The translations under genes and the position numbers were made by a program. A stretch of DNA of 64,000 nt from Hormiphora californensis (Eukaryota > Animalia > Ctenophora), in assembly GCA_020137815.1 (NCBI GenBank), contig CM035354.1, positions 4,960,001 through 5,024,000 on the forward strand, written 5' to 3'. The stretch's first letter is position 1, and each line of letters begins with the position of its first letter. Positions 1-59,408 of the stretch are shown here, one piece after another. Below the pieces are notes generated by a model that saw nothing but the letters and a program-made list of their open reading frames with translations, was not told the DNA's origin and made no database searches.

Positions 1-3000
1 AGAGACTTCTTACGCTGACCAGAGCAAGTTGGTCCTTCAGTGTAACAATACCAACTATAACTTCACCTCGGAGTCCTTCAACACGGGTGTCATACCAACA
101 TGTTACGGTAAATCACAGCTGGAGTAAATTAGTATAGTGATAGCAATAATAAGTATGATGATATTGAATGAATAGTAGTACCGGGAACCAAAACTGTAGA
201 CATACATGCCTGACATAATTATATATTTTCCCGATAACTAAAATTTAATACAATACTTTTAACCTAAGATCAGGAGTGACATCTAACACTAACCTAAATT
301 ACAACTTCTCTCCCTAACTTAATAAAACACACAGATTTATGCGGGTTCAGCAGTTCCCAAAGTTATAAAAACGTCGACACGTCAATCACATCGGTCGTGG
401 TCGGTGATCCAGCCTACGAGGGTCAAGACGTATCCGGTAGCAGTTACGACGTAGCGGCGTATACCAAAGTACTAACAATATATAATCCTGCAGCATGATC
501 ATATCTTGCAGATACGTGTGCCTTGCGAACTACCAATGCGCTGAACATTGGGGAGATAACATGGCTTGTCGGAGAGACCCGGTCCCTCACCAACAATATG
601 GCAATGAGACCTGGCGAGAAAGTGAGTCACACACACAATAAAATGTCCCACTGTACACAATACATAATACACAATACACAACTGGAAGTAAAATCACAAA
701 AAACACACTACACAATCATACAGTACCAGCTCATGGTTCATGATCACCAATTTTAATTGACAATCAATTAGAACAACTGTAAAACATACACAAACGCTTG
801 AGAGTTCAAAGAGTACAAAGAGAGAGTATTCAGGGTTTATTGATTGACATTTTGAGGGTTCTGGGACCGTCCGACAGGTATCTTGCATCTCTGCTAGCAA
901 CCCCTCACACACAATCTATCTTCTAGCTATACCTTCCACTAGCTAATATAGCTATCTAACTCTCTCTATCTTTGAGCTATTACCGAATGTGATATGAAGC
1001 TGATATAAACAAATGCTAATCTGATATTTGAAGCTAAACTAACCCATATGAAGCTCGACTATAATCCCAACTTATCTGATACTGAGCTGTCTCCCTCTCT
1101 GCATGTACACAGCTATAACACTGATAATGACCGCATGACCCTGCATGAGCACATCAACCCGGGGGTTGTCATGTCTCCCACACTGCCCGGGACATGTCAA
1201 CCCCTCCTCTCTACATCTCCCCTCCCTCTCAACTAACTAACTCTGTTACCTAGGTAAAACTATCGTGTAATGACACGTCCCTGTACACCGTCAAAGGAAC
1301 GAATCTATCATACGCTGAGTATGAGTGCAACACTGATGGCGACTCTATATCCGTTCAGCCTTGCTTCAAGTACTGCAGTGTAAGTGATCAATTGGTGTTG
1401 TAACGATCTGTCCAATTATCGTGTGAGTGGTGCAGTGTGAATAGTTAAGTGTGTGACATGAGATGTGTGACATGACACCCTCTCTCACTTGGTCTCACCA
1501 CCCTCCCCTCTCCAGATCTCCGATCTGACAATGAATACCAACACCAACACGGAACCCAGTGGCAAGGCTGGGTATGGCCAGACTGTTACCTTCACCTGCT
1601 CTGGTGACTACTATCTAGGATCTAGTACGGGAGAGCAGTTCACATCCACATCTAGTGAAAATATTAGGTGCAAGTGGGCTGATAGTAGCGTCCAGGATGA
1701 TGTGGTCTTCTCCGAAACCACTGTCGCATCTACCTCTCTGTGTTATGGTACGTTTATATTGTGCTGATCCTAGGTTATAATATAGGCTATAACACTCTTC
1801 TCTCTGTTTATTATGTGGATGATCTAGTTAGGCTAATCTAGATAGTTGTTCGCTCGCGATATTCAATACTCCTGTAGTATGACGAATAATCCTCTTCTCT
1901 TTCTGCAGCTGCCCTCCAGTCGGTGTCCTCTGTGCCTGATGGTGATGGAACCTTTGTAGTCACAATCACCATGCCCAGTGACAGAGACACGTAAGTTATC
2001 ATGGCAACCAATGGAATAAGTGTTATAACAGATTCACCAACTATATTTGTGGGATATGTTAAACTAACTGTCCTGATCTCGTTTCAGGAGTGAGACTATT
2101 GACTACATCACTCTCTACACCTCCTCCGGAACTAGTCTGGGTAATGCCAGCCTGACCAGCCAAACGAGCTCTAACTCCTTCACAGTATCATACACGGATA
2201 CCAGCGATTACTCCACCCTCGATGATGCTTATGCCACCATCATTTACGCTGATGACCCCACCTACAATTCTTCTACTCTGACCTTAGTCAAGGGACCTCC
2301 CTCTGCAGATGTCTGTAAGTGCAGTTACTTCAGTATGTTACTTCAGTAGTTCGCAGTTACTTCAGTACTGTTTGATGCTGGGAACTGGTGACGACCTTTT
2401 TGTTACTCAATGCTAGTAGTTAAGGTGGATGTGCAGTAGTTGGAAACTGAAAACATGGTCCTTCAATTTTCCCTAACAGTCAACTAACCCCAATATTCCC
2501 CTTCCAGCCGTGACCTCATTCTGGTGTGGGTGTAGTGACTGTGACAATTGACAATGAAGCCGCCCTTTCATCCTATGTCTCCACTACAGACCTGTCCTAT
2601 TTCCCTGTCCGCTACAGCCACAAAAAGCAGCAAAAAGAGGAGCAGCGACTCATCAACAGTCAGCACGTGTAAGTGTGCGAGAGAAAGAAATTATGAGAGA
2701 AAGTATAGTTTTATGGCACTTTGGCCTTCTTTTTTTTATTATGACAAAACCATAACAATTCTTCTTCACATTTTACAGCGTACGTGAGTGGAACAGATAC
2801 CTACACTCTCGACTTCTCCGGACTCAGCTCCCTCTCATCATACTCTGTCGCCATGACCGTTGATGTTACTGTTGATGGTACCAGCTACAGTGGTGGATCT
2901 ACCTCCTTCGATTTCGACACCGGTAATTAACACTTTTCAAAGCTATTCTACCTGAGATGTTACTCTAGAGTTCACTGCTTTCTTGTTTGCCTACATCTTC

Positions 3001-6000
3001 ATTTTTCACCTTCTATCATCCTCACTACTTCACTATTTCACTATTTCTTCACAAGTCCAAGTGTGCAGTCAACTAGCTGTGGTTGCGCCCGTCTCCCCCA
3101 GACCTAAACCATACCCCTCTCTAATGGTTTTTCCTAGACGAGACGATTACCTTTTTATTATTTTTAGGTTTGAAATCTGTGAGGGGTCCCTTAGCTGCAG
3201 CTTTCGCTGTGTGGGACCCCTGGGTGTGTGTGATGATATTTGAAAACAAGTTTATTATAAATGTTTCCCACCCAAAATAGTTCGACCCAATAAAATTAAT
3301 TACTAATTAGATGAGGGTCAATACTACTACTAATGGGAGGTTGACCAAATCATATTTTTGAGACGTCCCCGTGCTAACATTTGTCACTCCCTCATGTGTT
3401 ACACGCCACCCTAACATGTCTCTCTCTCCCCTGCCAGGATTCCCCACACCCAGTGTCAGCACCAGTGTAACATCATCTACCTCCAACACCTTTACCATCA
3501 CCATGGGTGGCAGCCTCACCCTCAGTGGAGACTACAACACCACCGTGAGTTATATCATGGGTGATATAGTAGTTACCATGGGTGATATAGTTACCATGGT
3601 TACCGCCATGGTTACTATGAAGTGTGTTACACTAACTCAATACCCTCCCCAGATTGATGGAACTACCTATGAATTAACCTACACTGATGGAGTGGCTACT
3701 AAACTCCTGACCGACCTCACAGCCCTGGAATCCTACACCTATGACGTCACCATGACCAGCACCACTGATGTCGTGTCCGACGCTGTTTCAGTGACATTCA
3801 CTCAGGGACCCACTGAGCCTAATGTGACAGGCAGCACAATCACTGATACCAGCTTCAACATTGTATGGATACATACTAGCGAGAATGCTTATTCTCTTAC
3901 AATCTACAAGAAGCTAGACACAGGTATTATTATACGGGTGACATAAACATATTAGATTGACTCATGTCTCGTGTGGGCTGTGGGGAGATGTATTTATTTA
4001 CAGATGAAACAAAACAGGGCATGGTATTCTATAGCTGCTTTTATACACCTCACATTTCCAGGTGATTACTCCGAGGTTGGATCTCACTCTATCTCCGCTA
4101 CCGAGACGATCAATACCCACACTTTCACCGACCTCGAGGCTGGGGAGACCTACAAGATCGTTATTGACGCTGAGATGGAGGTCAGCGGGGTCAACATCAA
4201 GAGCGCAGAGACGAGCATCGAGGAACAACTATGTAAGTATTATAGACACGTCCCTCAATCAGACGGTTACCATGGTTACCAATCAGATATTAGTTACCAT
4301 GGTTACCGGTGGATAGCAGTTACCCACTCACATATTGCCATCATAATGCATATTATGTTTTCACTATTAGATCCTACAACTTACCATACTACCCCTGTAT
4401 CTAGATTCGTGTACTCGTGAAGATAAGTCTGCGTACACCCTGTACTACAAGAACGGCGGTCAGGTGGTCACTGCGGACTACTTCTACGCTGATTCCAGTG
4501 TCATCTACATTGTCGAGTGTCCGGTAAATATATACACGCCTTTTTTACTGCTAACCCCTCACTTGGATGGGTTGAACTGTACTCTTGGGATGCTGGACCC
4601 CCTCACTTCATCTAATCCACGATAAAAGCTGTTCAAACTCATCGTTACCATGGTTACAACATTATCCTTTCAGGCGAACCAGTCCTTTAAGACAGTGGAC
4701 TCCACCTACGACAACGAGACTTCATGTATCGGGGCCGAGAGTTGGTCCACTCATAGTGATTGTCAGGATACCGCAGGTATAAATGAAATGAGCGAGAGAT
4801 GGAGAGAGATATAATTGAGATGAATTATATCTAGTGGTTACAGGAGAGATCATATCCAGATTAAGATCTAACCCACTTGATCAACCCACTCTAACAACAG
4901 CTAACACACATACTATAGAGCCGGAGAAGGTGATTGATGAAGGGTCTGATGTGGTTGTTGGCATTGTGTTAGGTATCCTTGCAGTGCTTATCATTGTAGG
5001 AATCATTCTGATCCTCATATACAAGAGAAACAAAGAGTAAGTGTGTGTGTTGTGTTTTATTAACGCACACACACACGCACAAGAGAGATAGGGAGTCAGA
5101 GTGAAGTTTGGGATGCTAAAAAACTTACTACATAAAACGTCATGTCGTATTGTAGTCAAATAATGAATTGTAACAGGAATAAGTTGTCTATAGTAAAAAC
5201 TAATAAACTAACAGTAAATCTTATAGATGAGGTATCAAACCCGACGGATAATACTGCAACTGTAACTGGAATAATAATAGCGATTATAGTAATTCTGATA
5301 ATAATTATCATCATAATTATCCTAATTAAAAGAAGGTTAATTAAGTAACATGTAAACTGCATGTGTTAAACAAAATGTCAATGTGCCCGTGCCGTTCTTT
5401 TAACTGTGCTATTAACTTACCATCTGACAGACAAACAAATAAACAAACTTACCATCTGACACGACTGACAGACACTTATTCGACCTTCTCTCTTCGAAGG
5501 GCTAGAACATGCAGACACAATTATACAGCTTAGTAAATCTGATACAACCTTGCGAACTTACTCAATACCTACTACTTACACGATAACTATAATAAAGTAC
5601 TGGCCATGCTTTACCTAGTTGACACGTCTCCTTAGGATTGGCGCTAGGATTGTATAGACCACCATCTTTCTAGGTAGATCGACTGATAGACATAGCGTAT
5701 AGTTACAATCTAAGCTACTAGGCATCACACAAGGACTCAGTGTGTCATTTGTAAAAGAGATCAATGAGCAAATAAATTAATATTTTGATTTTTGGCAGTG
5801 ATCACACAAATTCGCACTATATAATTTGAGTTGTTCACGTATACATGATTTGTTACACATGTCCCCACATTGCTTCAGAAGCGTCTACCAGTGATTCTGG
5901 GAATGCGGCAGCAGTGACTGGGATTATAGTAGCAATTATAATATTGCTAATATTCCTTGTCGTCCTAATCGTCCTAATTGACCGAAGAAGGTTTTTAAAC

Positions 6001-9000
6001 ATGAAGATAATGATGGTCATGTATAATCTTCGCATGTCGATATATATATATGTGTGGATGTGTGTGTCTTTGAGTACCCATGAAACATGATTAGGAGTAG
6101 GTCCGCAACTACAGGATACCGGGTTTTAGAATATCAAAATCCTATTCGCTAGATTTAAGATAACACAAACACTGAACAAAGCATGTAAAACACTTTTAAA
6201 ATTTAACATTTCAGCAGCAATGAGCTCTGGTGAAGTAGCGGGGATAGTGGTCGGGGTTGTATTGGCAATAGTTGTCATTGCCTTGGTCGTACTGGCCATT
6301 GTAATCATGATTAGGTAGATAGAACACAGCACAGGATCTATACAATCTCTATTATAGCCTGGAATCTATACAACTCTCTCTTATATAGGCGCAAAGTTTA
6401 CTAAACTATAATATACCTGGGGCTCTTCGACGAAACTTTAAACACACTTAATAAATAAGCTCTCTTTAGAGTTACACAAGGAAAATTTTTCAGACTTGTC
6501 TCGAGAGGGGTGTCGTCGAACGCTTTCCAAAACCTCACTTTAGGTCCTTGGTGTGAACCACGTGTATACCACGTGAATCCCCGGATCACCCCTCGTGTAT
6601 GGGTGTAGAAAACCAATCAGGGGATCGAAAATGGACACGTGATAGGATTTCCATTACATGGGTTTACACAGGCGTCAATTTGGTCACGTGTAGGGTTCAC
6701 CAGCCAATAGTGTTAGCGAGATATCACACCAGATTGGGCGTGAAGAAGAAGTTTGACTTCCATTTCTCAAGATTCAAGAAATTTCAAATCTTCAAAACTC
6801 TGTGTACTCTTACAGTAGCTGGCAATGAATGTTATAGCGGACAAATAGAGATCTAACATTGATTGTTCGCATTTTGAAAAATCAATAAACCTATACACTA
6901 ATAACTTAAGCAATATTATTTAGGCCGGGTGAGATGAATAGATAGGCTGCTAGATGAAGAGATAAACAGTGAAAGTATAGTAGTAGTTCACTGTTCATCT
7001 TGTCCTGCCAGAAGGAAAACAACTGAATTCATCCACATCTTATCTGACTGTGAGAGTCTAATACAGATGGTGTATGCAGTATGGGCTTGGCTGAAACCCC
7101 AAACTAGTGCCTCAATATTGTGGTTGAGTAGAGATAGCTAACTGGGGGACAAGGAGTGCCATTTTATCTTTTTTCTACATGCGAGAAGCAAAATATACAC
7201 TGTTTTGTTGCATTTTTTACTTGCCAGCGCTGTCTTGTCTACCATTAAGTCTCCTCTGGAGGAGACTTAACAAATCTCACTTTTCTCGATATTTGAGTGA
7301 GATATTGCGTGAACTATGACGTCATTGTCGCTTCAATTTGGCCCAAATCACGTGATTTTACCACGTGATTAGGGGGTTACGCAAGGTTTGGAGAGCTTGT
7401 GTAAAACTTCACTTACTACCCCTCAATTTTCACTAAGCAAGATTTCTAAAAAGTTTCGTCGACACAAACCATGCTTAAGGGGTGTGAAAATCAATTAGAA
7501 GGTGTGAAAGGAGAGTTACGCAACGTTTTTAAGTGTGCTTAAAGTTTCGTCGAAGAGCCCCTGATCAGTACTCTATCCTGATCAGCACTAACTTTTAAAA
7601 ACTTACTGAACAATTTGGCCAATTATGGAGTCAACGAATTCTTGGGCTTGATGATCTTCTAATAGGAAATATATTATCGTTTATTCAACAGACGAAATTG
7701 ACTAATTGATATCTGACTGGACAATTATATCTTTACATATTTGCATGGTGTAATGTACACTGTTTGTATATCTTGTATCTGTTTCAGCATCTGAACTTTG
7801 AATGTTACTACTTTTCTTGACAACATGTTGTCAGATATATGGGTCCTATCTCCAAATATCTGACAATATCAAATGAGCATGCCCAAACAACTTCTCTCTC
7901 TCTTTGTCTTTTCTTGTGCGTGTGTGTGCGTGTTGTAGGGGGACTTGACATAGTGATGTTAAAGTTCCCCCCGGCATGTGACAAGAATCATGGGACTCTT
8001 GATCCTATAATTCTTACTGAGAATAGCATGAACAAAGGCCGTGGTTGCTGGTCTCTGATTTTCTCTCAAGACCTTTCATTTGCCCCCTCCCTCCCTGTCC
8101 CTCCCCCAAGATCTTGCAAGATCACACCCCACGGCCACCCTCTACAAGACACCATGGTAACCCCAAGACGCCATGGTAACGGCCCACTCTCTTTAAGAGA
8201 CCAGCCCAACCCCTCTTCAAGAGACCAGCAACCATGTCAACTGACAATCACGCTCTACCCAGCACACCCAGTTACACACTTTATTGGATCCCAATCATAG
8301 ATCTGATAAGTCTGTAACCATGGTTACCACTCACTCACCCCTGTATAACAGCTGAGTGAGTGGTACTGCTGCAGGAGGGTACCATATATCTTTCAGTACA
8401 TCTAATGTCCCTCCCCCTCTAAACAGGAAAGGAAACCCCAACTCCAATGCATACTCGCCCCGAGATGAGGAACGCAACCAAGAGTAAGTTAAACTTAAAA
8501 TACTTTTTTGTACTTTTAATTCTGGTGTACTTTATGTACTTTTAGTTGATTGAGACTGCTGCACGATGTACTTCTGGTTTGATAAGAGTGGTTGCCATGG
8601 GCGTGCACTGCACCATGTAACCATGGAAACCGTTGATTAACCGTTGCATCCCCTGGTAACCATGGAAACCACGGATTAACCGTTGCATCCCCCTGTAGGG
8701 TAGAGGGAGGTGAAGCCTGGAAGAACCCCTACTACCACGAAGACGATAACAAGTAGGGAAACTGTTTGTTTTTGTTTGTGTTAAGCTGCGTCCATTAATC
8801 ACCCATAATTATCCCTCTAGACTAGACCCTATCTCTTTATTTGTGTTTACTGTTTATGCATAAACACGATTTGTGCATCCAATCACCCTTTAAATGGTAT
8901 AGCTGTTATAGTCCGTATCTAGGTAGCTGTAGTTTATGAGGATGTGTGTGAATGCGTTGTGCGTGGAGCATTATCTAGCTTTGTGGCCTCATAACAACTC

Positions 9001-11003
9001 GGCAGCACGATTGTGTAATAATTAGTTGGTTTCCTAATTAATTAATTAATTGTCTAATAACACACCAGGCCCATTAATGAGAATGAAGTGATTTTAACCT
9101 CACTAAGAGAGGGTAATAACGGATACGGCACAGCTCCGTATAATAACGAACAGTCGGCTACATTTGAGTGTGACGACACTAGCCTCCCTCTCAGGGAGGA
9201 AGAGGAGGAAGATAGAGAGTAAGGGCAGCTGCAGTGACTGCTAGCTGGGTGCAGCATAATAGAGAGAGTGCTACAGATATGCAGGGAGTCAGAATTGTCA
9301 TTAAGAAGCATATTTAGCGGCTATAAAGCGGTCATGAATCATTCCAATGCTCAGGCTACTAGCTAATCAATTAACATTAGCACAGGAGCTGTCCCTGATA
9401 AAATTAATAAGTGCCGTATATGTGTGTGAAACAGCTATAGGTGGCGAACAACCCTAATTCTTAAAAAGGGAAACCAGTGCCCCAAAACACTATATCCTCT
9501 CAACTGTGTGCTACACCCCCTCTTTACCGTGTGCTACACCCCCCCTCTTTACACTACTCAGGAAGGAGCCTGAAGATGTGCCCCTACCCATGCCCGAGTA
9601 CAATACCCCAAAACCCCCGCCCCCGGTGGAGTACAATGAGGTCGCTGAGCTGCCTCCACCTGCCCCTGAAGAACCTGAGCCTGAGCCTGAGCCTGAATTT
9701 GAACCGGTCGTGAAGTAAGGGCCCCACCCATGATGTGATGCATGGTCTGCATGGTGCATGGAACTATAATAGGGTCATTATTATACCACTGACTCTATAG
9801 TATTTGGCCCCGCACAGAGTCAGAAATTAACATGACCTGCGAACCCCCCCCCCCTTCCCCTCAGAGTTTTGACAACTACATCCTGACAACTAAATTACAT
9901 TTAAACAATTTGACAATGACTGACAATGACATACTTGATCCTACGCAGGTCCAAGATCAGTAGTATTGTTGACTTGACTGACTATGACGACAGGGTGTTA
10001 ATTAACCCCAAAAAGACGTAAGAACATCGAGAGAGATTTGAGACCCCATTCCCAAAAAATATTACTCTTTAGTATTTAGTTTGGTAACATCTCTCCTTGT
10101 GCACGGAAAGGCACCCCATTACTAAGGGACCTGCTAAAACACACTAGATACTGGCATGCTATATTGAACCCTATAGTGGCTGAGATTAGATATCCTATCA
10201 ATGCGCCTGTTAACAGACATATATTCTCGAAGGAGCTTTATACATTCTGAACCTGCATCCCCCATGTATTGTGATGTTCTCACTGGGCTGCATTATGATA
10301 TCCCCTAACAACATATCCCCTTCACCCAGGAGTAGTCCAGATATCCCTGCAGTGCCTGATAATAGGGAGGCCCCGGACACGCCGCCACCAGCCCCTCCTG
10401 CCGATAACGTATCACAGGTTAGTACTATATAATAGTTCTATCTTTTTACCCTCTCACTCCGCGCTCCTCTTTTACAAATGTAAAGGAGGGTCACCATATC
10501 AGTGCGAACTAGTTCTATCTAGGAGCTGGGCCTCTGTGATCACGTCCCCCTCACACAGGGCCATGGCCAAGTTCTATATCTTCTAGACAGGGCTGCTCTG
10601 AGTCTGCTAAACGTGTAGCTCTTAGACTGAGGCTGGAAGACGTGTTTGTTTAGCACAGCCCATGATATCTCTAGACGACATTCTATCTGATCTAATTTCA
10701 AAGACGGCATTTAGTCTGAATTCCGAATATGATTGCATTTCGAATTCACGCTGAATTTCTGCTAGTTCTGTTGTCTCCTTCCCCGCTCTGTCCCCTCTCT
10801 AAACCCCATTCTACGCCTCTCTCTCCCCTCTCTAAACCCCATTCTACACCTCTCTCTCCCCCTCTCTAAACCCCATTCTACACCCCCCCAACTCCCCTCT
10901 CTAAACCCCATTCTAAACCCAGGGAGGTGAGATGACGTTTGATGACGACGAGCCAGAGGCCGATACCGTCATAGAGAACAGAAATGCAGGGAACAACGTG
11001 TAA
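1..11003 (+). CDS. Multi-exon type-I transmembrane receptor (5' end outside window): Sushi/CCP-like repeats, 3-4 FN3-like beta domains, a membrane-proximal Sushi-like domain, TM and a Tyr/Pro-rich cytoplasmic tail
   Basis: Hand-assembled GT-AG exons: <1-107, [335-468 or 512-621], 1254-1379, 1516-1747, 1909-1990, 2088-2314, 2508-2668 (2 apparent extra T), 2779-2922, 3438-3544, 3653-3923, 4062-4232, 4405-4523, 4674-4776, [TM 4919-5036 / 5227-5335 / 5879-5990 / 6215-6314], 8427-8483, 8699-8752, 9069-9218, 9562-9714, 9949-10017, 10330-10417, 10923-11003 (..NAGNNV*). Phases are consistent except at 2508-2668. Sushi-like motifs: GQTVTFTC..IRCKW..C and PGEKVKLSC. FN3-like motifs: FTDLEAGETYKI, LTDLTALESYTY, FSGLSSLSSYSV. 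Confidence 0.85.
335..468 (+). CDS. Alternative Sushi N-half exon a (DLCGFSSSQSYKNVD...YDVAAYTK)
   Basis: acacag| acceptor, AAA|gtacta donor, phase 1 to 0, 134 nt; joins in frame to the VKLSC exon at 1254. Confidence 0.7.
512..621 (+). CDS. Alternative Sushi N-half exon b (DTCALRTTNALNIGEITW...MRPGEK)
   Basis: ttgcag| acceptor, AAA|gtgagt donor, phase 1 to 0, 110 nt; gives PGEK-VKLSC with exon 1254. Confidence 0.75.
4919..5036 (+). CDS. Alternative TM exon A (EPEKVIDEGSDVVVGIVLGILAVLIIVGIILILIYKRNKE)
   Basis: ctatag| ... GA|gtaagt, phase 1 to 2, hydrophobic helix plus basic stop-transfer residues. Confidence 0.85.
5227..5335 (+). CDS. Alternative TM exon B (DEVSNPTDNTATVTGIIIAIIVILIIIIIIIILIKRR)
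   Basis: ttatag| ... AG|gttaat, phase 1 to 2. Confidence 0.75.
5879..5990 (+). CDS. Alternative TM exon C (EASTSDSGNAAAVTGIIVAIIILLIFLVVLIVLIDRRR)
   Basis: cttcag| ... AG|gttttt, phase 1 to 2. Confidence 0.75.
6215..6314 (+). CDS. Alternative TM exon D (AAMSSGEVAGIVVGVVLAIVVIALVVLAIVIMIR)
   Basis: tttcag| ... AG|gtagat, phase 1 to 2; not in the supplied + strand ORF track. Confidence 0.8.
6417..7563. mobile_element. Non-autonomous TIR DNA transposon (~1.15 kb, hAT-like CAGGGG termini) in the intron after the TM cluster
   Basis: ~33-bp inverted termini C(T/A)GGGGCTCTTCGACGAAACTTTAA.CACACTTAA; no clear TSD and no transposase ORF. Confidence 0.7.
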
Positions 11004-13960: not shown

Positions 13961-14804
13961 AAACACGTCCGTGCCAACCTTGGAATTCGCTGCAGCCCCC
14001 TCATCATGCCCGCACCCGCCAAGCGCCAACCTGATCTCGTCTGATGCCCAGCGATCCATTGTCGCCTGTAGGCTCGGTTTGTTGTTTCTTTAGGACCGTA
14101 TCGGGAAACTGGAAACATTTCAAGTCTGGGTTGAAAAGCACTGCACCGGGACGGCGCTGGGCCTTTACCCTTTGGCCCTGCAACACCCTGAATGTCGAGT
14201 GTCCGGATCCATTGCCAGGGACGGCAGCTCTGGTCAGGGGGTATTGGGGTAAAATCCCCCACTACAGTGATCCAGGAGCGCAGCCCCGGCGGGAGATAAG
14301 AAGGCAAAGAATTATCTAGCGCTCCTTATACCTCGTTAGTCGTAAAACTGAACGGTGCAGAGTGCAGTGGGAGCCTCGCAAACTTTGCTAAAACCAGAAA
14401 AACTTATAACATTATACTAACATTCTGCATTCATGCACGGTTTAGGCCTGGGGAGAGGGTGAACTTTGCGCTTGCCAGCACAGTGATGTGTTTTAGAAGT
14501 CTTACATCTCCTTTATACCAATATCAGAAGTCGTTTAGAAGAGAAGTTCACAAGAGACACCCCTTAGTCGCACAAACAGCACAAATTCACTCAATAAATG
14601 ACCCCCTTACCCATGCCTAAATCGCAAAAGTTACCTGTCAAAAAGTTCCCCAGACTTTTTGGCAGATAAAATAAATAGTTAGCTACCCAGACCTAAATAA
14701 TTCAATCATCACCAGATACTTACGTTACCGGATTGCCAGAATCCGGATACTTACCAAACCATTTGTATAATAACCGAATACTTCTTCACTGTATTCCTAC
14801 TTAC

Positions 14805-15736
14805 TCAGTTTTCTGCAAAACGGGGCTTCATCAGTCCATATTACGTCGGTATTACAGGTCCTCTCAGAGACACCGTCTAGCACGTGTTTCTTCTGGCAGT
14901 TGATGGTCACCGTCTCTCCAGGATCAGTATCGTCCCAAGTTCCTTGGACAGATCCATCAACGGTAAACCCAGGACACGCTGATGATCAAAAGAAATGGTG
15001 TTTAGATATTGTAGGATACAGCTAATTGTCATAATCATTGAATAGCTAGGTACTGCATGAAGTGAGATTAATAACTACTTCGTACCTGTTGGCATTGCAC
15101 GGTAGCTGTCTGATGCATTGTCATATGCTGTGTTGGAACTAAATTGTATCTTCTCCACAACATCTCCCCTCCACCTTGGTTCACATGTTTTGTCAGTAAT
15201 GTCACTGAACTTGTGGTGCAGGACCTCCACCTCGTTACAAACTATGATCAGATCAGTAGCTGTCTTTCGAATGGTCCAAATCTTGTCCACTTCATCTGGT
15301 GGTTGTACTGGGAAGGCATACCAGCTCATGTCACAGTAGCCGATGAAGTATTTGATGGGTGAGTGGAACTTCAATCGTACTCCTCCAACTAATCCCTGTT
15401 CTGTTTCATCTTTAGTATGGGTAAACATCACGAAAAGATCCCCGTCCCCGGTAGTAGAGTCGGTTTTTATTTGAAAGGGGTGCTCTCTAGATCATGTGTG
15501 ATGAATGTACCGCGTTCAACTGGAATCCACACTGAAACAATACATAGGAGTGTAATTAACCTTACTCGATCGAATAATTTCGATTTACACTGAACTACGT
15601 GAACACTGAATTAACTACGTGAGCTATGAATTACCAATAGTGAACATATAATGGATATTTGCAAATACTTGTACCGACCTGTTGGAGTGACAGAATGAAT
15701 CAGCAGAACAACAAAGAGCAATCGCTTGAGAAACAT
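14805..15736 (-). CDS. Secreted protein: signal peptide, uncharacterised beta-rich domain (DLES.P.QIKTDS...DKIWTIRKT...CNEVEVL...ASDSYR) and a Sushi/CCP domain; last exon(s) not resolved
   Basis: Exons 15736-15679 (MFLKRLLFVVLLIHSVTPT), 15531-15086 (1-nt frameshift near 15475) and 14978-14805 (CPGF...PGETVTINC..HVLDG..RTC..W..APFC); all introns phase 1. Confidence 0.75.
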
Positions 15737-16947
15737 CTTCAGGAAAAGCTACAGCAAAATGGATGCAGATAGATATAGATCATTTATTAGAGAGGTGTAC
15801 ACGTGCCACCCCTTTCCGTTAACTGTTTTCATTGAGACCTTATGAGAAACGTTCCAACTTTTTTTCCATTGGCTCCCGGAATGATGGCAGCACGTGTGTC
15901 AATTACAAAGTTCTATAGAAATAACTATATCTGTTATGTAAAGAGGAGGTGTCGCGACTCGCGTCGTTCGTTCAGTGCGTTGTTAAGCAACAGTGCTCCA
16001 TCATAAAATGGACCCAAACAAGTAAGGCTTATTTATTTAATAAATATTTTTAATTAAATTTCAACAATTTTGTTCAACAACAAAAAAAATTCGGTCGTCA
16101 TATTTACCGCTTCAGTTACCATGGCAATCATAAAATTGGCGTATAAGTGGTAAAAAAGAGGGCCATCCGGCGGAGCCGGGTGGGTTTGTCATCAGCACAT
16201 GCTTGAGGCACACCCGGTGTTGAGATTGAGCTAGCAGTGTTATAGGGAGAGAGGACACAGCGTGTGTCACTTGTCCACATTATCAGTGACTATCCATGTT
16301 TGATGTGTCTGTGTTTTGAGAGTACTCCAACAATTCTTTGATTATCTCTCCATTCTCTCACATGTTTCTCACTCAAGAAGGTGTACCAGAGCTAATGGTC
16401 TTGTTGTTTTTCAAATATTTATATCGGACAGATTTCTGTCTCTATCTCTGTCTCTCTCTGTCTCTCTCTCTCTCCTCTCTCTCTTCTTCGTCCTCTATTA
16501 TCAGGGATTGAGGGAGTGATATGGGTGGAACAAGAAGAGAGTGAAGTAGGAGAGAGATGTTGGGACAGATCGAAATACTGAGTAAAAAGGAGAATCATAT
16601 GACTGGTGGTTATATGAGAGAGAGATGTGTGACGTCACGCATCATTGCATTTTACACTGCGGGTAAATTTCCGGGTGTGTTATCACTGTGTAAATATGTG
16701 TGAGTGTATGAGAGGGAAATGGATTAGTTGAAAGGATGCCTTGTATGTGAGAGGAAGAGGAAAGAAATGTAAACTTGTGATTTGAGTTCTTCAATTTCGA
16801 CTTTTGCATTGAGAAACACACTATGTTTATGAAGAAAATGCTGTAGAAAAAGATGAACAGGTTAAAAAATGAGAGAGATCAGAGAGGGGAGAGAAAATGA
16901 GAGAGAGGAAAGAGACGGAATTAGAGAAAGAGAGAGTTAGAGAGAAT

Positions 16948-18453: not shown

Positions 18454-21400
18454 ATAGGAAGGTAGTATAGAGTTACATTAAAATATGCTACACACAAATT
18501 TCTTGTCACCATGGAAATGGGCTTGCGGTGGAAATGGGAAGATGTTTTTTTTGGAAGTTTGTTTACTTTTGACTGATTGATCAGTATGTAAGGTATGTGA
18601 TTGATTGTGTGCTTGATGATGTCCTGTTTGTCCGTGTGTGTGTTTTACCATGAGTGTGTGTATTGTGTGTGTGTGTGAGATTGTTTGTCTTTGTCCGTGT
18701 GGCAGTGGTGGCATATTTCATCTTCCAATGGTAGGGTCATAACCATCACGTTGTGGTGATTGGTTGGTAGGGTCAAGTATAACAGTGTTATAACCACTAT
18801 ATGACTATCTGTCAGGTGTGTGTGCCAGGTTGAACTATTGTCAGTTAAGGTAGCTAATGGGTCTGTTTAGTGTGTCAGTCATTGTGTGTCAGTTATTGTG
18901 TGTCAGGTGTGTGTCAGCTGTATGTGTGTCAACACGCTACCTCGGAATGATATGAAGGAGGGACTGCGTAGTGATCTTCAGGGGGCCTAGGAGCAGGAAC
19001 ACTCGGCTTGTGTAACCCAGTCAGTTATTGTGTGTCAGTCATTGTGTGTCAGGTGTGTGTCAACACGCTACCTCGGAATGATATGAAGGAGGGACTGCGT
19101 AGTGATCTTCAGGGGGCCTAGGAGCAGGAACACTCGGCTTGTGTAACCCAGTCAGTTATTGTGTGTCAGTCATTGTGTGTCAGGTGTGTGTCAACACGCT
19201 ACCTCGGAATGATATGAAGGAGGGACTGCGTAGTGATCTTCAGGGGGCCTAGGAGCAGGAACACTCGGCTTGTGTAACCCAGTCAGTTATTGTGTGTCAG
19301 TCATTGTGTGTCAGGTGTGTGTCAACACGCTACCTCGGAATGATATGAAGGAGGGACTGCGTAGTGATCTTCAGGGGGCCTAGGAGCAGGAACACTCGGC
19401 TTGTGTAATCCTTCACCTGTCTAAGAAACATAACTTTCAATGACTGTCTGTCTGTTTGATGTTTATTGATGTTGATGTCTATTGATATCACTGGTGTTGA
19501 GATCACCATGTCTATCACATTGTGAGTTACTATCTGTATGTTACTCTGTTTGTCTGTTTGTCTGTTTGTCTGTTTGTCTGTTTGTTTGTCTGTTTGTCTG
19601 TGTATACCTCGTTTTTGACACTGTGTAACCGGCCACGTGACTCCCCGCTGGTTAACCTCGAGCCTGGTGGAGGCGCAGGGGCCGCTCTTCGGGGCTGGAG
19701 CTTCAACGACTAGGGGGACAACACACACTTAGGTTACAATGCTTCAATTATAAAATCAAATACGACACATGATGATCTCTGAAGAGTTCCAATCTCACAC
19801 AAACATAGGCTGGGATAATATCACAGGGACGTGCGAATATAAAATACATCATGCATACATTATAAGTAGAGAGATAGGGAACATGGTGAGTCTCTAATCA
19901 GAACTCCTGCACATGTAACTCTCTTGAGATTCCATAGAGACGCAATCACAGATCACACATGCACCCACACACACACATAGAACCTACTGAAACACTCCGT
20001 TGCACGGAGGCTTTACGGGACTGAGATATTGCTTCACTCTGAAAAAACGTGCACCGGCATGTAACACACCCACTACTACACAATACAACGTGCCCACCGG
20101 CCTGTAACACACCCACTACTACACAATGTGCTGTACTGTTACCAGTGCTGTACTGTTACCAGTGCTGTACTGTCACCAGTGCTGTACTATAATTCTAGAC
20201 TTTTATTATAAATTACAATAGCTAAAATGTGTACTACATACTACTATAAAAAGTATAGCACAAAGGGAGATATATATTTATTAGCAGCATTGGTTTTGTA
20301 TGTCCCCCCAGGCCCCACATACAAAGCGAACCCCCCCCCCCCACACGGTGTACCCCACGGCCCACCCCTATCTAACACACAAAGTGTACCCCGTTTTCCT
20401 ACCTTGGAGCTAGTGACAGAAGTAAGGGAGGTGATAGAATTACACCGGTTCATGGCCGGACTCAGACTTCCCTGACGTATATCCACAGAACTAGCGGACA
20501 GACGGTTCGGAGCTATCTCTGGGAGAGGGATAAGAGAGTTATTCTAAAAAGGGAGAAGAGAGTTGAATTTTTGGAAGTAGAACAACTTGGAGTTTACTTC
20601 TACTTGGAGTTTATTTGAAATGCCGGTCAACTTGACAAGTCGGTTTCCATGGTAACGGAAGTGAGAGGGGGAATAACGGAGGTCAGAGGTGAGAGAACCA
20701 GGGGAATATATACATTTTCAACTCACGTGGCGAATTGAGGGTAGTGCTAGTTGCACTTGACAGGGATAACTGAGATGCACTGTTAATGTTAATAGGTGCT
20801 GCATGCTGCATTTCTTCATAGAAATCCTCGTTAAATTCGTCATCACCTACATCTCCACCTGTTACGAGGGGGAGGTGAGATTTTAGCATTCCGGGAGGGG
20901 GAGGGAGTGTTATTGATCGAGTTTTCTTGTATATCATGATTCAGTGAGTGATAATTAGGATGACAAGTTATGTGTTATCTCTCACCTGTCACTAGACTGA
21001 TCTTGTCGTACTTAGCATAGCTTAACTTCTCCCATTTTCCCTCCCCTCCCTTAGGCTGCGTTATGTTCGGGGGTCGCCCTATTCTAGGCTGACGGTTTGG
21101 AATGTTGGCAGGAGGTAGTCTAGTATGTAGATCCGCTCTAAACGAACAACACGTCGACTTCTCAAGATATGCCGTGGCGGTGAGGGCTTTGTTTTCAATG
21201 TCTGACAGTTTGTCCGCCTGATCGTCCAGGAGTTGCTGGAAACATCCTGCCAAGTTATAGATCCTCTTGCTGACATCAACTAGACATGTTACAGCTTTAT
21301 CTCTAGCTTCTATCGTCAAGTCGCTCCTGTAAACAACACGATTGAGAAAAGGCGAGGTAAATTATAATATAAATGTCTGACAGGGGAACACGGATGAGTA

Positions 21401-26294: not shown

Positions 26295-59408
<33,114 letters not shown>

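Follow-up and report, generated by a model that had tools for sequence, protein, structure and literature searches.

A Sushi/FN3 surface protein gene with three layers of splice choice in the ctenophore Hormiphora californensis

The ectodomain of Drosophila Dscam1 is built from ten Ig and six FN3 domains, with alternative exon arrays at exons 4, 6 and 9. Splicing yields 19,008 ectodomain variants (PMC10325099), and the choice of transmembrane (TM) exon in Dscam directs the protein to dendrites (TM1) or to axons (TM2) (PMC2566808). The Alr proteins of Hydractinia, a non-bilaterian, are described as single-pass proteins with V/I-set Ig domains, an Fn3-like domain and ITAM/ITIM motifs, encoded by 41 clustered loci; in two of these, Alr1 and Alr6, the TM segment and the tail are likewise encoded by alternative exons (bioRxiv 2022.03.04.482883). 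CD55 is described as having four mutually exclusive exons in one cluster, and an intron too short to be spliced is among the described classes of mechanism for exon exclusion (PMC5740500). It is mainly among bilaterians that exon skipping is reported to be frequent, and ctenophores show it at a milder level (PMC6142364).

The gene described here lies on the forward strand of Hormiphora californensis, across positions 1-11003 of the window (the whole stretch of 64,000 nucleotides that was analysed), with its 5' end open at the window start. The window covers the 3' part of this gene, whose product is a single-pass surface protein without a catalytic domain: Sushi-like repeats in tandem are followed by FN3 domains, a cysteine module, a single TM helix and an acidic tail. 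The mRNA extends at least 898 nt beyond the window start (nt 899 of an RNA contig corresponds to position 1), and about 720 residues are expected from this upstream part. No paper on this gene was found in a literature search covering articles without their supplementary files. The features are as follows, with Sushi-like repeats numbered after the ortholog in Bolinopsis microptera.

1..107, + strand: partial coding exon, truncated at the start of the window, C-terminal half of Sushi-like repeat 5
335..468, + strand: ectodomain exon A, first of two alternatives, 45 aa forming the N-terminal half of Sushi-like repeat 6, phase 1 to 0
469..511, + strand: gap between A and B, 43 nt, the shortest of 24 gaps (the next is 97 nt)
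512..621, + strand: ectodomain exon B, second of two alternatives, 37 aa forming the other version of the N-terminal half of repeat 6, phase 1 to 0
1254..1747, + strand: exons 1254-1379 and 1516-1747, remainder of repeat 6, then Sushi-like repeat 7
1909..4232, + strand: FN3 region of seven exons (1909-1990, 2088-2314, 2508-2668, 2779-2922, 3438-3544, 3653-3923, 4062-4232)
4405..4776, + strand: exons 4405-4523 and 4674-4776, membrane-proximal four-cysteine module, end phase 1
4919..5036, + strand: TM exon 1, GxxxG motif, RNA use judged from depth
5227..5335, + strand: TM exon 2, aligning with TM exon 3 over 86 nt at 72% nucleotide identity
5879..5990, + strand: TM exon 3, RNA contig from sample X1 at depth 5.13 with a difference at 5929
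6215..6314, + strand: TM exon 4, with the shortest stalk of the TM exons
8427..8483, + strand: tail exon T1, likely constant, YSPRDxE motif kept in three species
8699..8752, + strand: tail cassette T2, W-x-NPYY (NPxY-type motif) in three species
9069..9222, + strand: tail exon T3, GT donor (9218) doubling as an in-frame TAA (9220-9222)
9562..9714, + strand: tail exon T4, rich in Pro and Glu, spliced to T2 in X1
9949..10017, + strand: candidate tail exon T5, a prediction based solely on splice sites and reading frame
10330..10417, + strand: tail exon T6, PDIP...REA matching both orthologs
10923..11003, + strand: predicted last coding exon T7, acidic, TAA end

All 25 exons have AG/GT borders wherever the window shows them. 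RNA contigs from two samples of one study (X1 and X2) give 20 splice joints, and all of the 15 that are listed agree with the exon model. The joints 107>335 and 468>1254 of exon A are found in both samples and the joint 621>1254 of exon B in X2, so both A and B are spliced onto 1254. In the tail, the joint 8752>9562 in X1 skips T3 (9069-9218). The use of TM exons is read from depth, with predicted bin depths of 3.01, 1.51 and 2.57 against 2.98, 1.53 and 2.60 observed, which indicates that TM1 and TM3 are both in use in RNA; the TM joints lie outside the 15 listed. TM2, TM4, T5, T6 and T7 are without RNA cover in X1 or X2, which does not indicate that they are silent.

An exon scan of the window recovers two ectodomain alternatives and four TM exons and no further alternatives of either kind. 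The reading frame is kept in all 256 combinations with a single choice at each position. In contrast, each of the six double or empty choices tried (A and B together, neither, two pairs of TM exons, all four, none) runs into an early stop, and the choices are mutually exclusive by frame. The 43-nt gap between A and B is likely too short to splice, which would enforce their exclusion. A fifth, non-TM exon at 7939 (AG, open frame) was left out of the model, having neither RNA nor ortholog support.

The ortholog in the ctenophore Bolinopsis is LOC134814785 (RefSeq XP_063679083-103, 'uncharacterized', isoforms X1-X16), where both matching proteins belong to one locus. The similarity within the orthologous group is colinear through ectodomain, TM and tail motifs (BLASTP E 1e-44 and 5e-39). 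A further ortholog, P0003, is also colinear, with 33% identity over 576 aa (E 2e-80). Exon B, TM1, T1 and T2 are all matched in the orthologous group. The 16 Bolinopsis isoforms use two ectodomain exons, four TM exons and optional tail exons in five tail forms. The three splice layers proposed in the initial annotation, with two ectodomain and four TM exons, are thus borne out by RNA, by frame and by a distant ctenophore. The first 753 residues are identical in 16 of 16 Bolinopsis isoforms, and therefore no larger upstream exon bank is annotated. Four of the eight possible ectodomain-TM pairs are modelled in Bolinopsis, where B occurs only with TM d and TM d only with B. The ectodomain and TM choices thus look coupled, the B/TM-d pairing coming from automatic annotation models of two isoforms. 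The Bolinopsis locus, known from such models, differs in having an extra tail cassette, an acidic repeat and a furin-like RRKR in FN3-4, all three without a match in the window, and in lacking counterparts of T4 and T5.

Exon B shares 12 identities with Bolinopsis exon B (z 9.2, 0 of 1000 shuffles). The Bolinopsis exon at the position of A is present in 14 of 16 isoforms and has no detectable sequence similarity to A. The seven exons in 1909..4232 encode about four Ser/Thr-rich FN3-like domains, and the membrane-proximal module has Sushi-like cysteine spacing; with a home-made repeat profile, the A-form and membrane-proximal modules did not score above shuffles (25/200 and 72/200). Pfam matches are weak on the window exons (Sushi E 0.082, fn3 E 0.013) and better on the orthologs, where fn3 is above the cut-off (E 2.2e-9) and Sushi below it (E 0.0035). 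The ortholog repeats are of the four-cysteine Sushi-like type, an assignment that applies to the protein beyond its N-terminal 290 residues, and its best matches in a PDB search are CCP proteins (CD55, E 8e-5). Sushi and FN3 modules are accordingly present, as first proposed. Among Ig profiles, Ig_2 matches the full-length ortholog best, at E 0.4, and both Sushi and fn3 score better.

The likeness to CD55, CD46 and CR1 is at the level of tandem CCP domains only; these complement regulators are not known to contain FN3 domains. By features, the closest Atlas clusters are of SUSD1 and RPTP-type proteins with FN3 (+Sushi) domains (scores 0.81-0.87), which are leads only. Pfam reports neither EGF repeats nor a phosphatase domain in P0003, P0006 or P0009, and the tails, at most 216 aa long, contain no such domain. 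The protein has no catalytic domain and fits no named family, as first proposed. A homolog search from 3440-3919 returned 0 of 4878 candidates, a PDB search with P0003 gave no matches, and a follow-up homolog search returned P0003 alone, which is the query itself. P0001 (93 aa) is a close relative of one exon only, while P0002 and P0004 were discarded as chance matches to repetitive proteins. The single-sequence fold of P0003 (pLDDT 37) was not used.

Conservation is uneven among the TM exons. TM1 matches one of the Bolinopsis TM exons without a single difference over 31 consecutive residues, compared with 31% identity (192/624) in the ectodomain. This invariant stretch comprises the helix and its basic flank, with no charged residue inside the helix. 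The other three TM exons have at most 18 identities with any ortholog TM. TM2 and TM3 look like a lineage-specific, recent-looking tandem duplicate. Because of this, and because TM1 is the only clear one-to-one match, the four-way count may be partly coincidental between the species. A common docking-site mechanism for the cluster is unsupported, with a clear complement only in the intron after TM1. A metagenome scan with the TM1 pattern gave one AT-rich, out-of-frame chance match, and one with the NPYY pattern gave none.

The tail was originally seen as five freely combined cassettes. Optional exons are confirmed by the skipping of T3 and by the T2 counterpart, present in 9 and absent from 7 of the 16 Bolinopsis isoforms, but free combination is not: T1 has a counterpart in 16 of 16 isoforms and in P0003, and the likely counterpart of T3 (z 3.6, 9 of 1000 shuffles) is an alternative last exon in all three isoforms carrying it. 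Neither T4 nor T5 is matched in the orthologs. With one tail exon likely constant, another likely a last exon and ectodomain-TM choices that look coupled, the proposed upper bound of 256 isoforms is an overcount.

Taken together, the protein made from this gene probably acts as an adhesion or sorting receptor of Sushi and FN3 modules. Its three splice switches are conserved, and its isoforms are likely set by cell type and not at random. Rather than mark self, the switches likely determine the destination of the protein and the partners it encounters from one cell type to another. Choosing A or B swaps half of one Sushi repeat and would probably alter a binding surface or the geometry of the stalk. 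By analogy with Dscam exon 17, the TM/juxtamembrane exon likely sets the membrane destination or a lateral partner, and the invariant TM1 helix likely binds a conserved membrane partner or itself. The W-x-NPYY cassette carries a putative PTB/FERM adaptor site, and its inclusion or omission probably switches this site on or off for uptake, recycling or cytoskeletal linkage. The short A-B gap and decay of frameshifted transcripts likely keep the choices exclusive.

The self-recognition or immune function first suggested for this gene is not supported by the data. A Dscam1-like self-avoidance code, with stochastic exon choice and cell identity read by isoform-specific homophilic binding, shares the splice logic in outline: a half-domain alternative exon, mutually exclusive TM exons and tail skipping, in a single-pass non-catalytic receptor with FN3 domains. 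The likeness holds for the TM exons (four here, two in Drosophila Dscam1) but not for an Ig ectodomain, replaced here by Sushi, or for large exon arrays, as both the window and the 16 Bolinopsis isoforms have two ectodomain alternatives. At most eight extracellular forms result when the short stalks are counted, with four modelled in Bolinopsis, and beyond the stalk TM and tail choices cannot add extracellular identity. Given also the constant 753 residues and the coupled choices, such a code is very improbable. An allorecognition or immune receptor of the Hydractinia Alr type, with a polymorphic ectodomain and ITAM/ITIM tails, could draw on the resemblance of Sushi modules to complement regulators, on the alternative TM and tail exons of some Alr proteins and on high silent polymorphism (pS 0.074). 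However, RNA and window differ at 37 synonymous and 3 non-synonymous of 697 codons in the two samples, mapped at an 88% threshold below which alleles would escape. The resulting pN/pS of 0.025 (0.067 if five further differences were all replacements) means that the protein is under strong purifying selection. ITAMs are absent from four of four tails, and the single ITIM-like match is confined to the window, absent from the orthologs and at chance level (333/2000 shuffles). No paralog occurs in the 64-kb window, and individuals of Bolinopsis, Mnemiopsis and Pleurobrachia are reported to fuse readily (PMC11565835). An Alr-like role is consequently very improbable. The initial annotation set low polymorphism against an immune role, and low protein polymorphism is what was found; a single dominant isoform, or orthology to a known constitutively spliced adhesion gene, was not.

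A run of invariant residues limited to one TM helix with its basic flank, and an ectodomain common to all TM alternatives, would also suit an auxiliary subunit that mainly escorts polytopic membrane proteins (a channel, pump or transporter), each TM exon choosing a client. Basigin-type proteins are escorts of this sort. The very long ectodomain and the conserved tail motifs suit a receptor better, and the TM1 helix contains no charged residue, which leaves this role rather doubtful. There is a small chance that the splice variety is mostly neutral, with interchangeable duplicated TM exons and tail skipping as tolerated noise. The recent-looking TM2/TM3 pair, the unmatched T4 and T5 and the ability of symmetric exons to skip at no cost agree with this, but exon B, TM1, T2 and the switch positions are kept across species despite the low ectodomain identity.

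In a bolder reading, less likely than not, ctenophores would have independently evolved a Dscam-like three-layer splice program in a receptor of their own. The four helices would form a partner code, with a different membrane protein or membrane domain docked by each, TM1 would be frozen by an ancient partner and the coupled B/TM form would mark a cell class such as neurons. Whether cell-type-specific isoform programs and sorting encoded in the TM segment have an independent origin in comb jellies can be put to a concrete test in this receptor, whose three conserved layers of splice choice include a four-way TM switch and one invariant helix. Its exons offer markers for PCR and in situ work, and a search for a partner could use the invariant helix as bait.

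Within exon 2508-2668 the window carries two surplus T letters, each a single insertion (at about 2519 and 2596), that are missing from the RNA contigs, and as a result translation of the window as it stands ends at about residue 317. These are likely assembly errors, or possibly a null allele.

A single plus-strand gene with 25 coding exons occupies 1-11003 of the window, and its start lies upstream. Spliced contigs from two RNA-Seq assemblies (X1 and X2), both of seawater and from a single study, agree with the exon model at all of the joints listed (15 of 20), and one RNA contig extends 898 nt past the window's first base. The RNA-backed joints are as follows.

1-107 through 4674-4776, plus strand: exons joined as a chain (X1/X2 contigs)
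468>1254 and 621>1254, plus strand: ectodomain joints, both present (X1/X2 contigs)
8483>8699>9562, plus strand: tail joints (spliced contigs)

The initial annotation proposed a choice between two ectodomain exons, which is confirmed by RNA. These are A (335-468) and B (512-621), each coding for the N-terminal half of Sushi-like repeat 6 and each spliced to 1254. The gap between A and B is 43 nt compared with at least 97 nt in the other 23 gaps; mutual exclusion is known to arise where donor and branch point lie less than 50 nt apart (PMC5740500). The four proposed transmembrane exons, TM1-TM4 (4919-5036, 5227-5335, 5879-5990 and 6215-6314), are frame-exclusive and use of TM1 and TM3 could be fitted from depth, but the RNA joints listed include no TM joint. 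TM3 contains a difference carried by a contig at depth 5.13, and bin depths are consistent with splicing from exon 4674-4776 into either TM1 or TM3, the two branches merging again at 8427 (predicted 3.01, 1.51 and 2.57, observed 2.98, 1.53 and 2.60, with the TM1 depth fitted from TM1's own bin).

Exon 2508-2668 has two T letters that are missing from RNA contigs, the first contradicted by X1 and X2 and the second by X1, the sole run with cover there. Taken literally, the window letters give a stop at about residue 317. With the extra Ts removed the reading frame is open in all 256 single-choice combinations, while an early stop results from A+B, neither A nor B, TM1+TM2, TM1+TM3, all four TMs or no TM. 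Scanning for further alternatives revealed neither a third ectodomain exon nor a fifth TM exon.

An HMMER search across 1.84 billion proteins returned four matches, of which one, P0003, is a real full-span relative (33% identity across 576 residues; tail T1-T2-T6). P0003 as query led to LOC134814785 in Bolinopsis microptera (2 matches among 1519 candidates), the ectodomain of which is identical to that of the window at 192 of 624 positions; the most likely origin of the window is therefore a ctenophore only distantly related to Bolinopsis. The Bolinopsis proteins (1574-1648 amino acids) have a signal-peptide-like start and about 290 residues without domain assignment. After these come a six-cysteine unit with trefoil-like spacing and seven repeats of four cysteines each; about four FN3 domains lead to a further four-cysteine module, and the protein closes with a TM helix and the tail. 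The Sushi identity is based on a Pfam match below cut-off (E 0.0035) and on CD55/CR1 matches (E 8e-5 to 1e-4), and the FN3 identity on E 2.2e-9 in P0003 and Atlas look-alikes. Against a profile of Bolinopsis repeats 1-5, window repeats 6B and 7 outscore 200 of 200 shuffles; 6A and the membrane-proximal module did not exceed all 200. Two of the Bolinopsis proteins (P0005/P0006) carry at about residues 1280-1360, within the last FN3 domain, an acidic 8-residue tandem repeat and then a furin-like RRKR site, whereas the window and P0003 have neither.

All 16 Bolinopsis isoforms, which are annotation models and not independent samples, are identical in their first 753 residues. Exon A is found in 14 and exon B in two, with the switch at the same position as in the window; each isoform has one of four TM exons, and there are five tail forms. 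Exon B is orthologous between the species (z 9.2), and no sequence similarity was detectable between the window and Bolinopsis versions of exon A. The most surprising feature is the invariant TM1 helix, with 31 consecutive identical residues; the other window TMs share at most 18 identities with ortholog TMs, to which composition contributes in part. TM2 and TM3 are 72% alike in DNA. In the tail, T1 (8427-8483) is present in all 16 isoforms and T2 (8699-8752; W-x-NPYY) in nine, and an exon like T3 (9069-9222) ends the protein in all three isoforms carrying it. If T1 is taken as constant and T3 as terminal, the ceiling for the window drops from the 256 isoforms first suggested to about 80, of which at most 8 are extracellularly distinct. 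Four of the eight ectodomain-TM pairs are seen in the Bolinopsis models, with B paired always and solely with one TM exon.

The gene and its splice switches are real, conserved and unstudied. The Bolinopsis isoforms are already in RefSeq as automatic models. No literature was found on the locus or three of its protein accessions, in a search covering few subscription papers, and topic searches brought up no paper on such a gene, as judged by titles and the beginnings of abstracts. It is not described in the passages covered of the Mnemiopsis genome preprint (10.1101/2024.01.21.574862) or, likewise in part, of a wiring-receptor review (PMC10084454).

The gene product is probably a receptor for adhesion or sorting, with isoform programs that depend on cell type. 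By analogy with FGFR IIIb/IIIc, where a half-domain swap changes the binding surface, the half-Sushi swap would likely do the same. The NPYY cassette in T2 resembles the PTB/FERM adaptor-site consensus and would likely turn such a site on or off. The choice of TM exon likely decides where the protein goes or which lateral partner it meets; in Dscam, forms with exon 17.1 are sent to dendrites and those with exon 17.2 to axons (PMC2566808). In Bolinopsis, two TM exons contribute extra cysteines, within the helix or next to the membrane, that could be acylated. A role as an auxiliary subunit of a membrane protein is unlikely, and neutral splice variety is more doubtful still.

The gene was initially read as a combinatorial self-recognition or immune receptor, and an immune or allorecognition role now appears highly improbable. 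RNA contigs differ from the window in 40 codons, with 3 replacements against 37 synonymous changes (40 listed of 45 differences, plus 2 from a second table; pN/pS 0.025, 0.067 at worst), and no paralog lies within the 64-kb window. The same samples contain contigs that match the window exactly and others that diverge from it by about 5%, so there is much silent polymorphism, with the protein itself kept constant. No ITAM was found in the tails examined, and the single ITIM-like match, in T4 (9562-9714), is equalled by 333 of 2000 shuffles and absent from the orthologs; the tail motifs YSPRDxE and W-x-NPYY are kept in all three species compared. The Hydractinia Alr genes form an Ig family of 41 loci whose tails carry ITAM/ITIM motifs (bioRxiv 2022.03.04.482883), and chimeras form readily in three ctenophore genera (PMC11565835, in the section covered). 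A Dscam-like code is the least likely reading, with 19,008 Dscam1 ectodomains (PMC10325099, covered in part) compared with two alternative ectodomain exons and at most 8 extracellularly distinct forms here.

Within the gene, 5062-5084, in the intron directly after TM1, is complementary at 21 of 23 positions to 7912-7934, in the long intron before T1. The window has no other match as good, though the pair is CA/TG-rich; its pairing would loop out TM2-4. A contig from a third RNA-Seq run (X3) aligns with 7892-7926 over 35 nt with 3 differences and 1 gap, which may be a chance match. Another X3 contig (depth 239) matches 35 nt at 4148-4182 in an FN3 exon and runs on in related but different coding-like letters; it likely derives from an orthologous or paralogous gene that is expressed in a different ctenophore sample. 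The intron after TM4 holds a 1.14-kb MITE-like element (6419-7561) with 36-nt terminal inverted repeats (94%), and no second copy was found in the window. Seven of nine phase-2 donors in 4919-10017 (TM1, TM4, T1-T5) give an in-frame stop one residue into the retained intron, so intron retention would yield clean truncated tails.

Elsewhere in the window, a multi-exon minus-strand gene with a signal-peptide-like start lies at about 14700-15740, and tandem 128-bp copies at about 18900-19410 apparently overlap one exon of a gene on the minus strand. By eye, a 7TM-like hydrophobic reading frame without introns was seen at about 36300-37090 (minus strand). Likewise by eye, a region at about 40200-44900 (plus strand) resembles a non-LTR retroelement, with endonuclease, RT and RNase H-like reading frames and a break at about 41280-41930. 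Units of about 63 bp form a tandem array at about 45750-46650.
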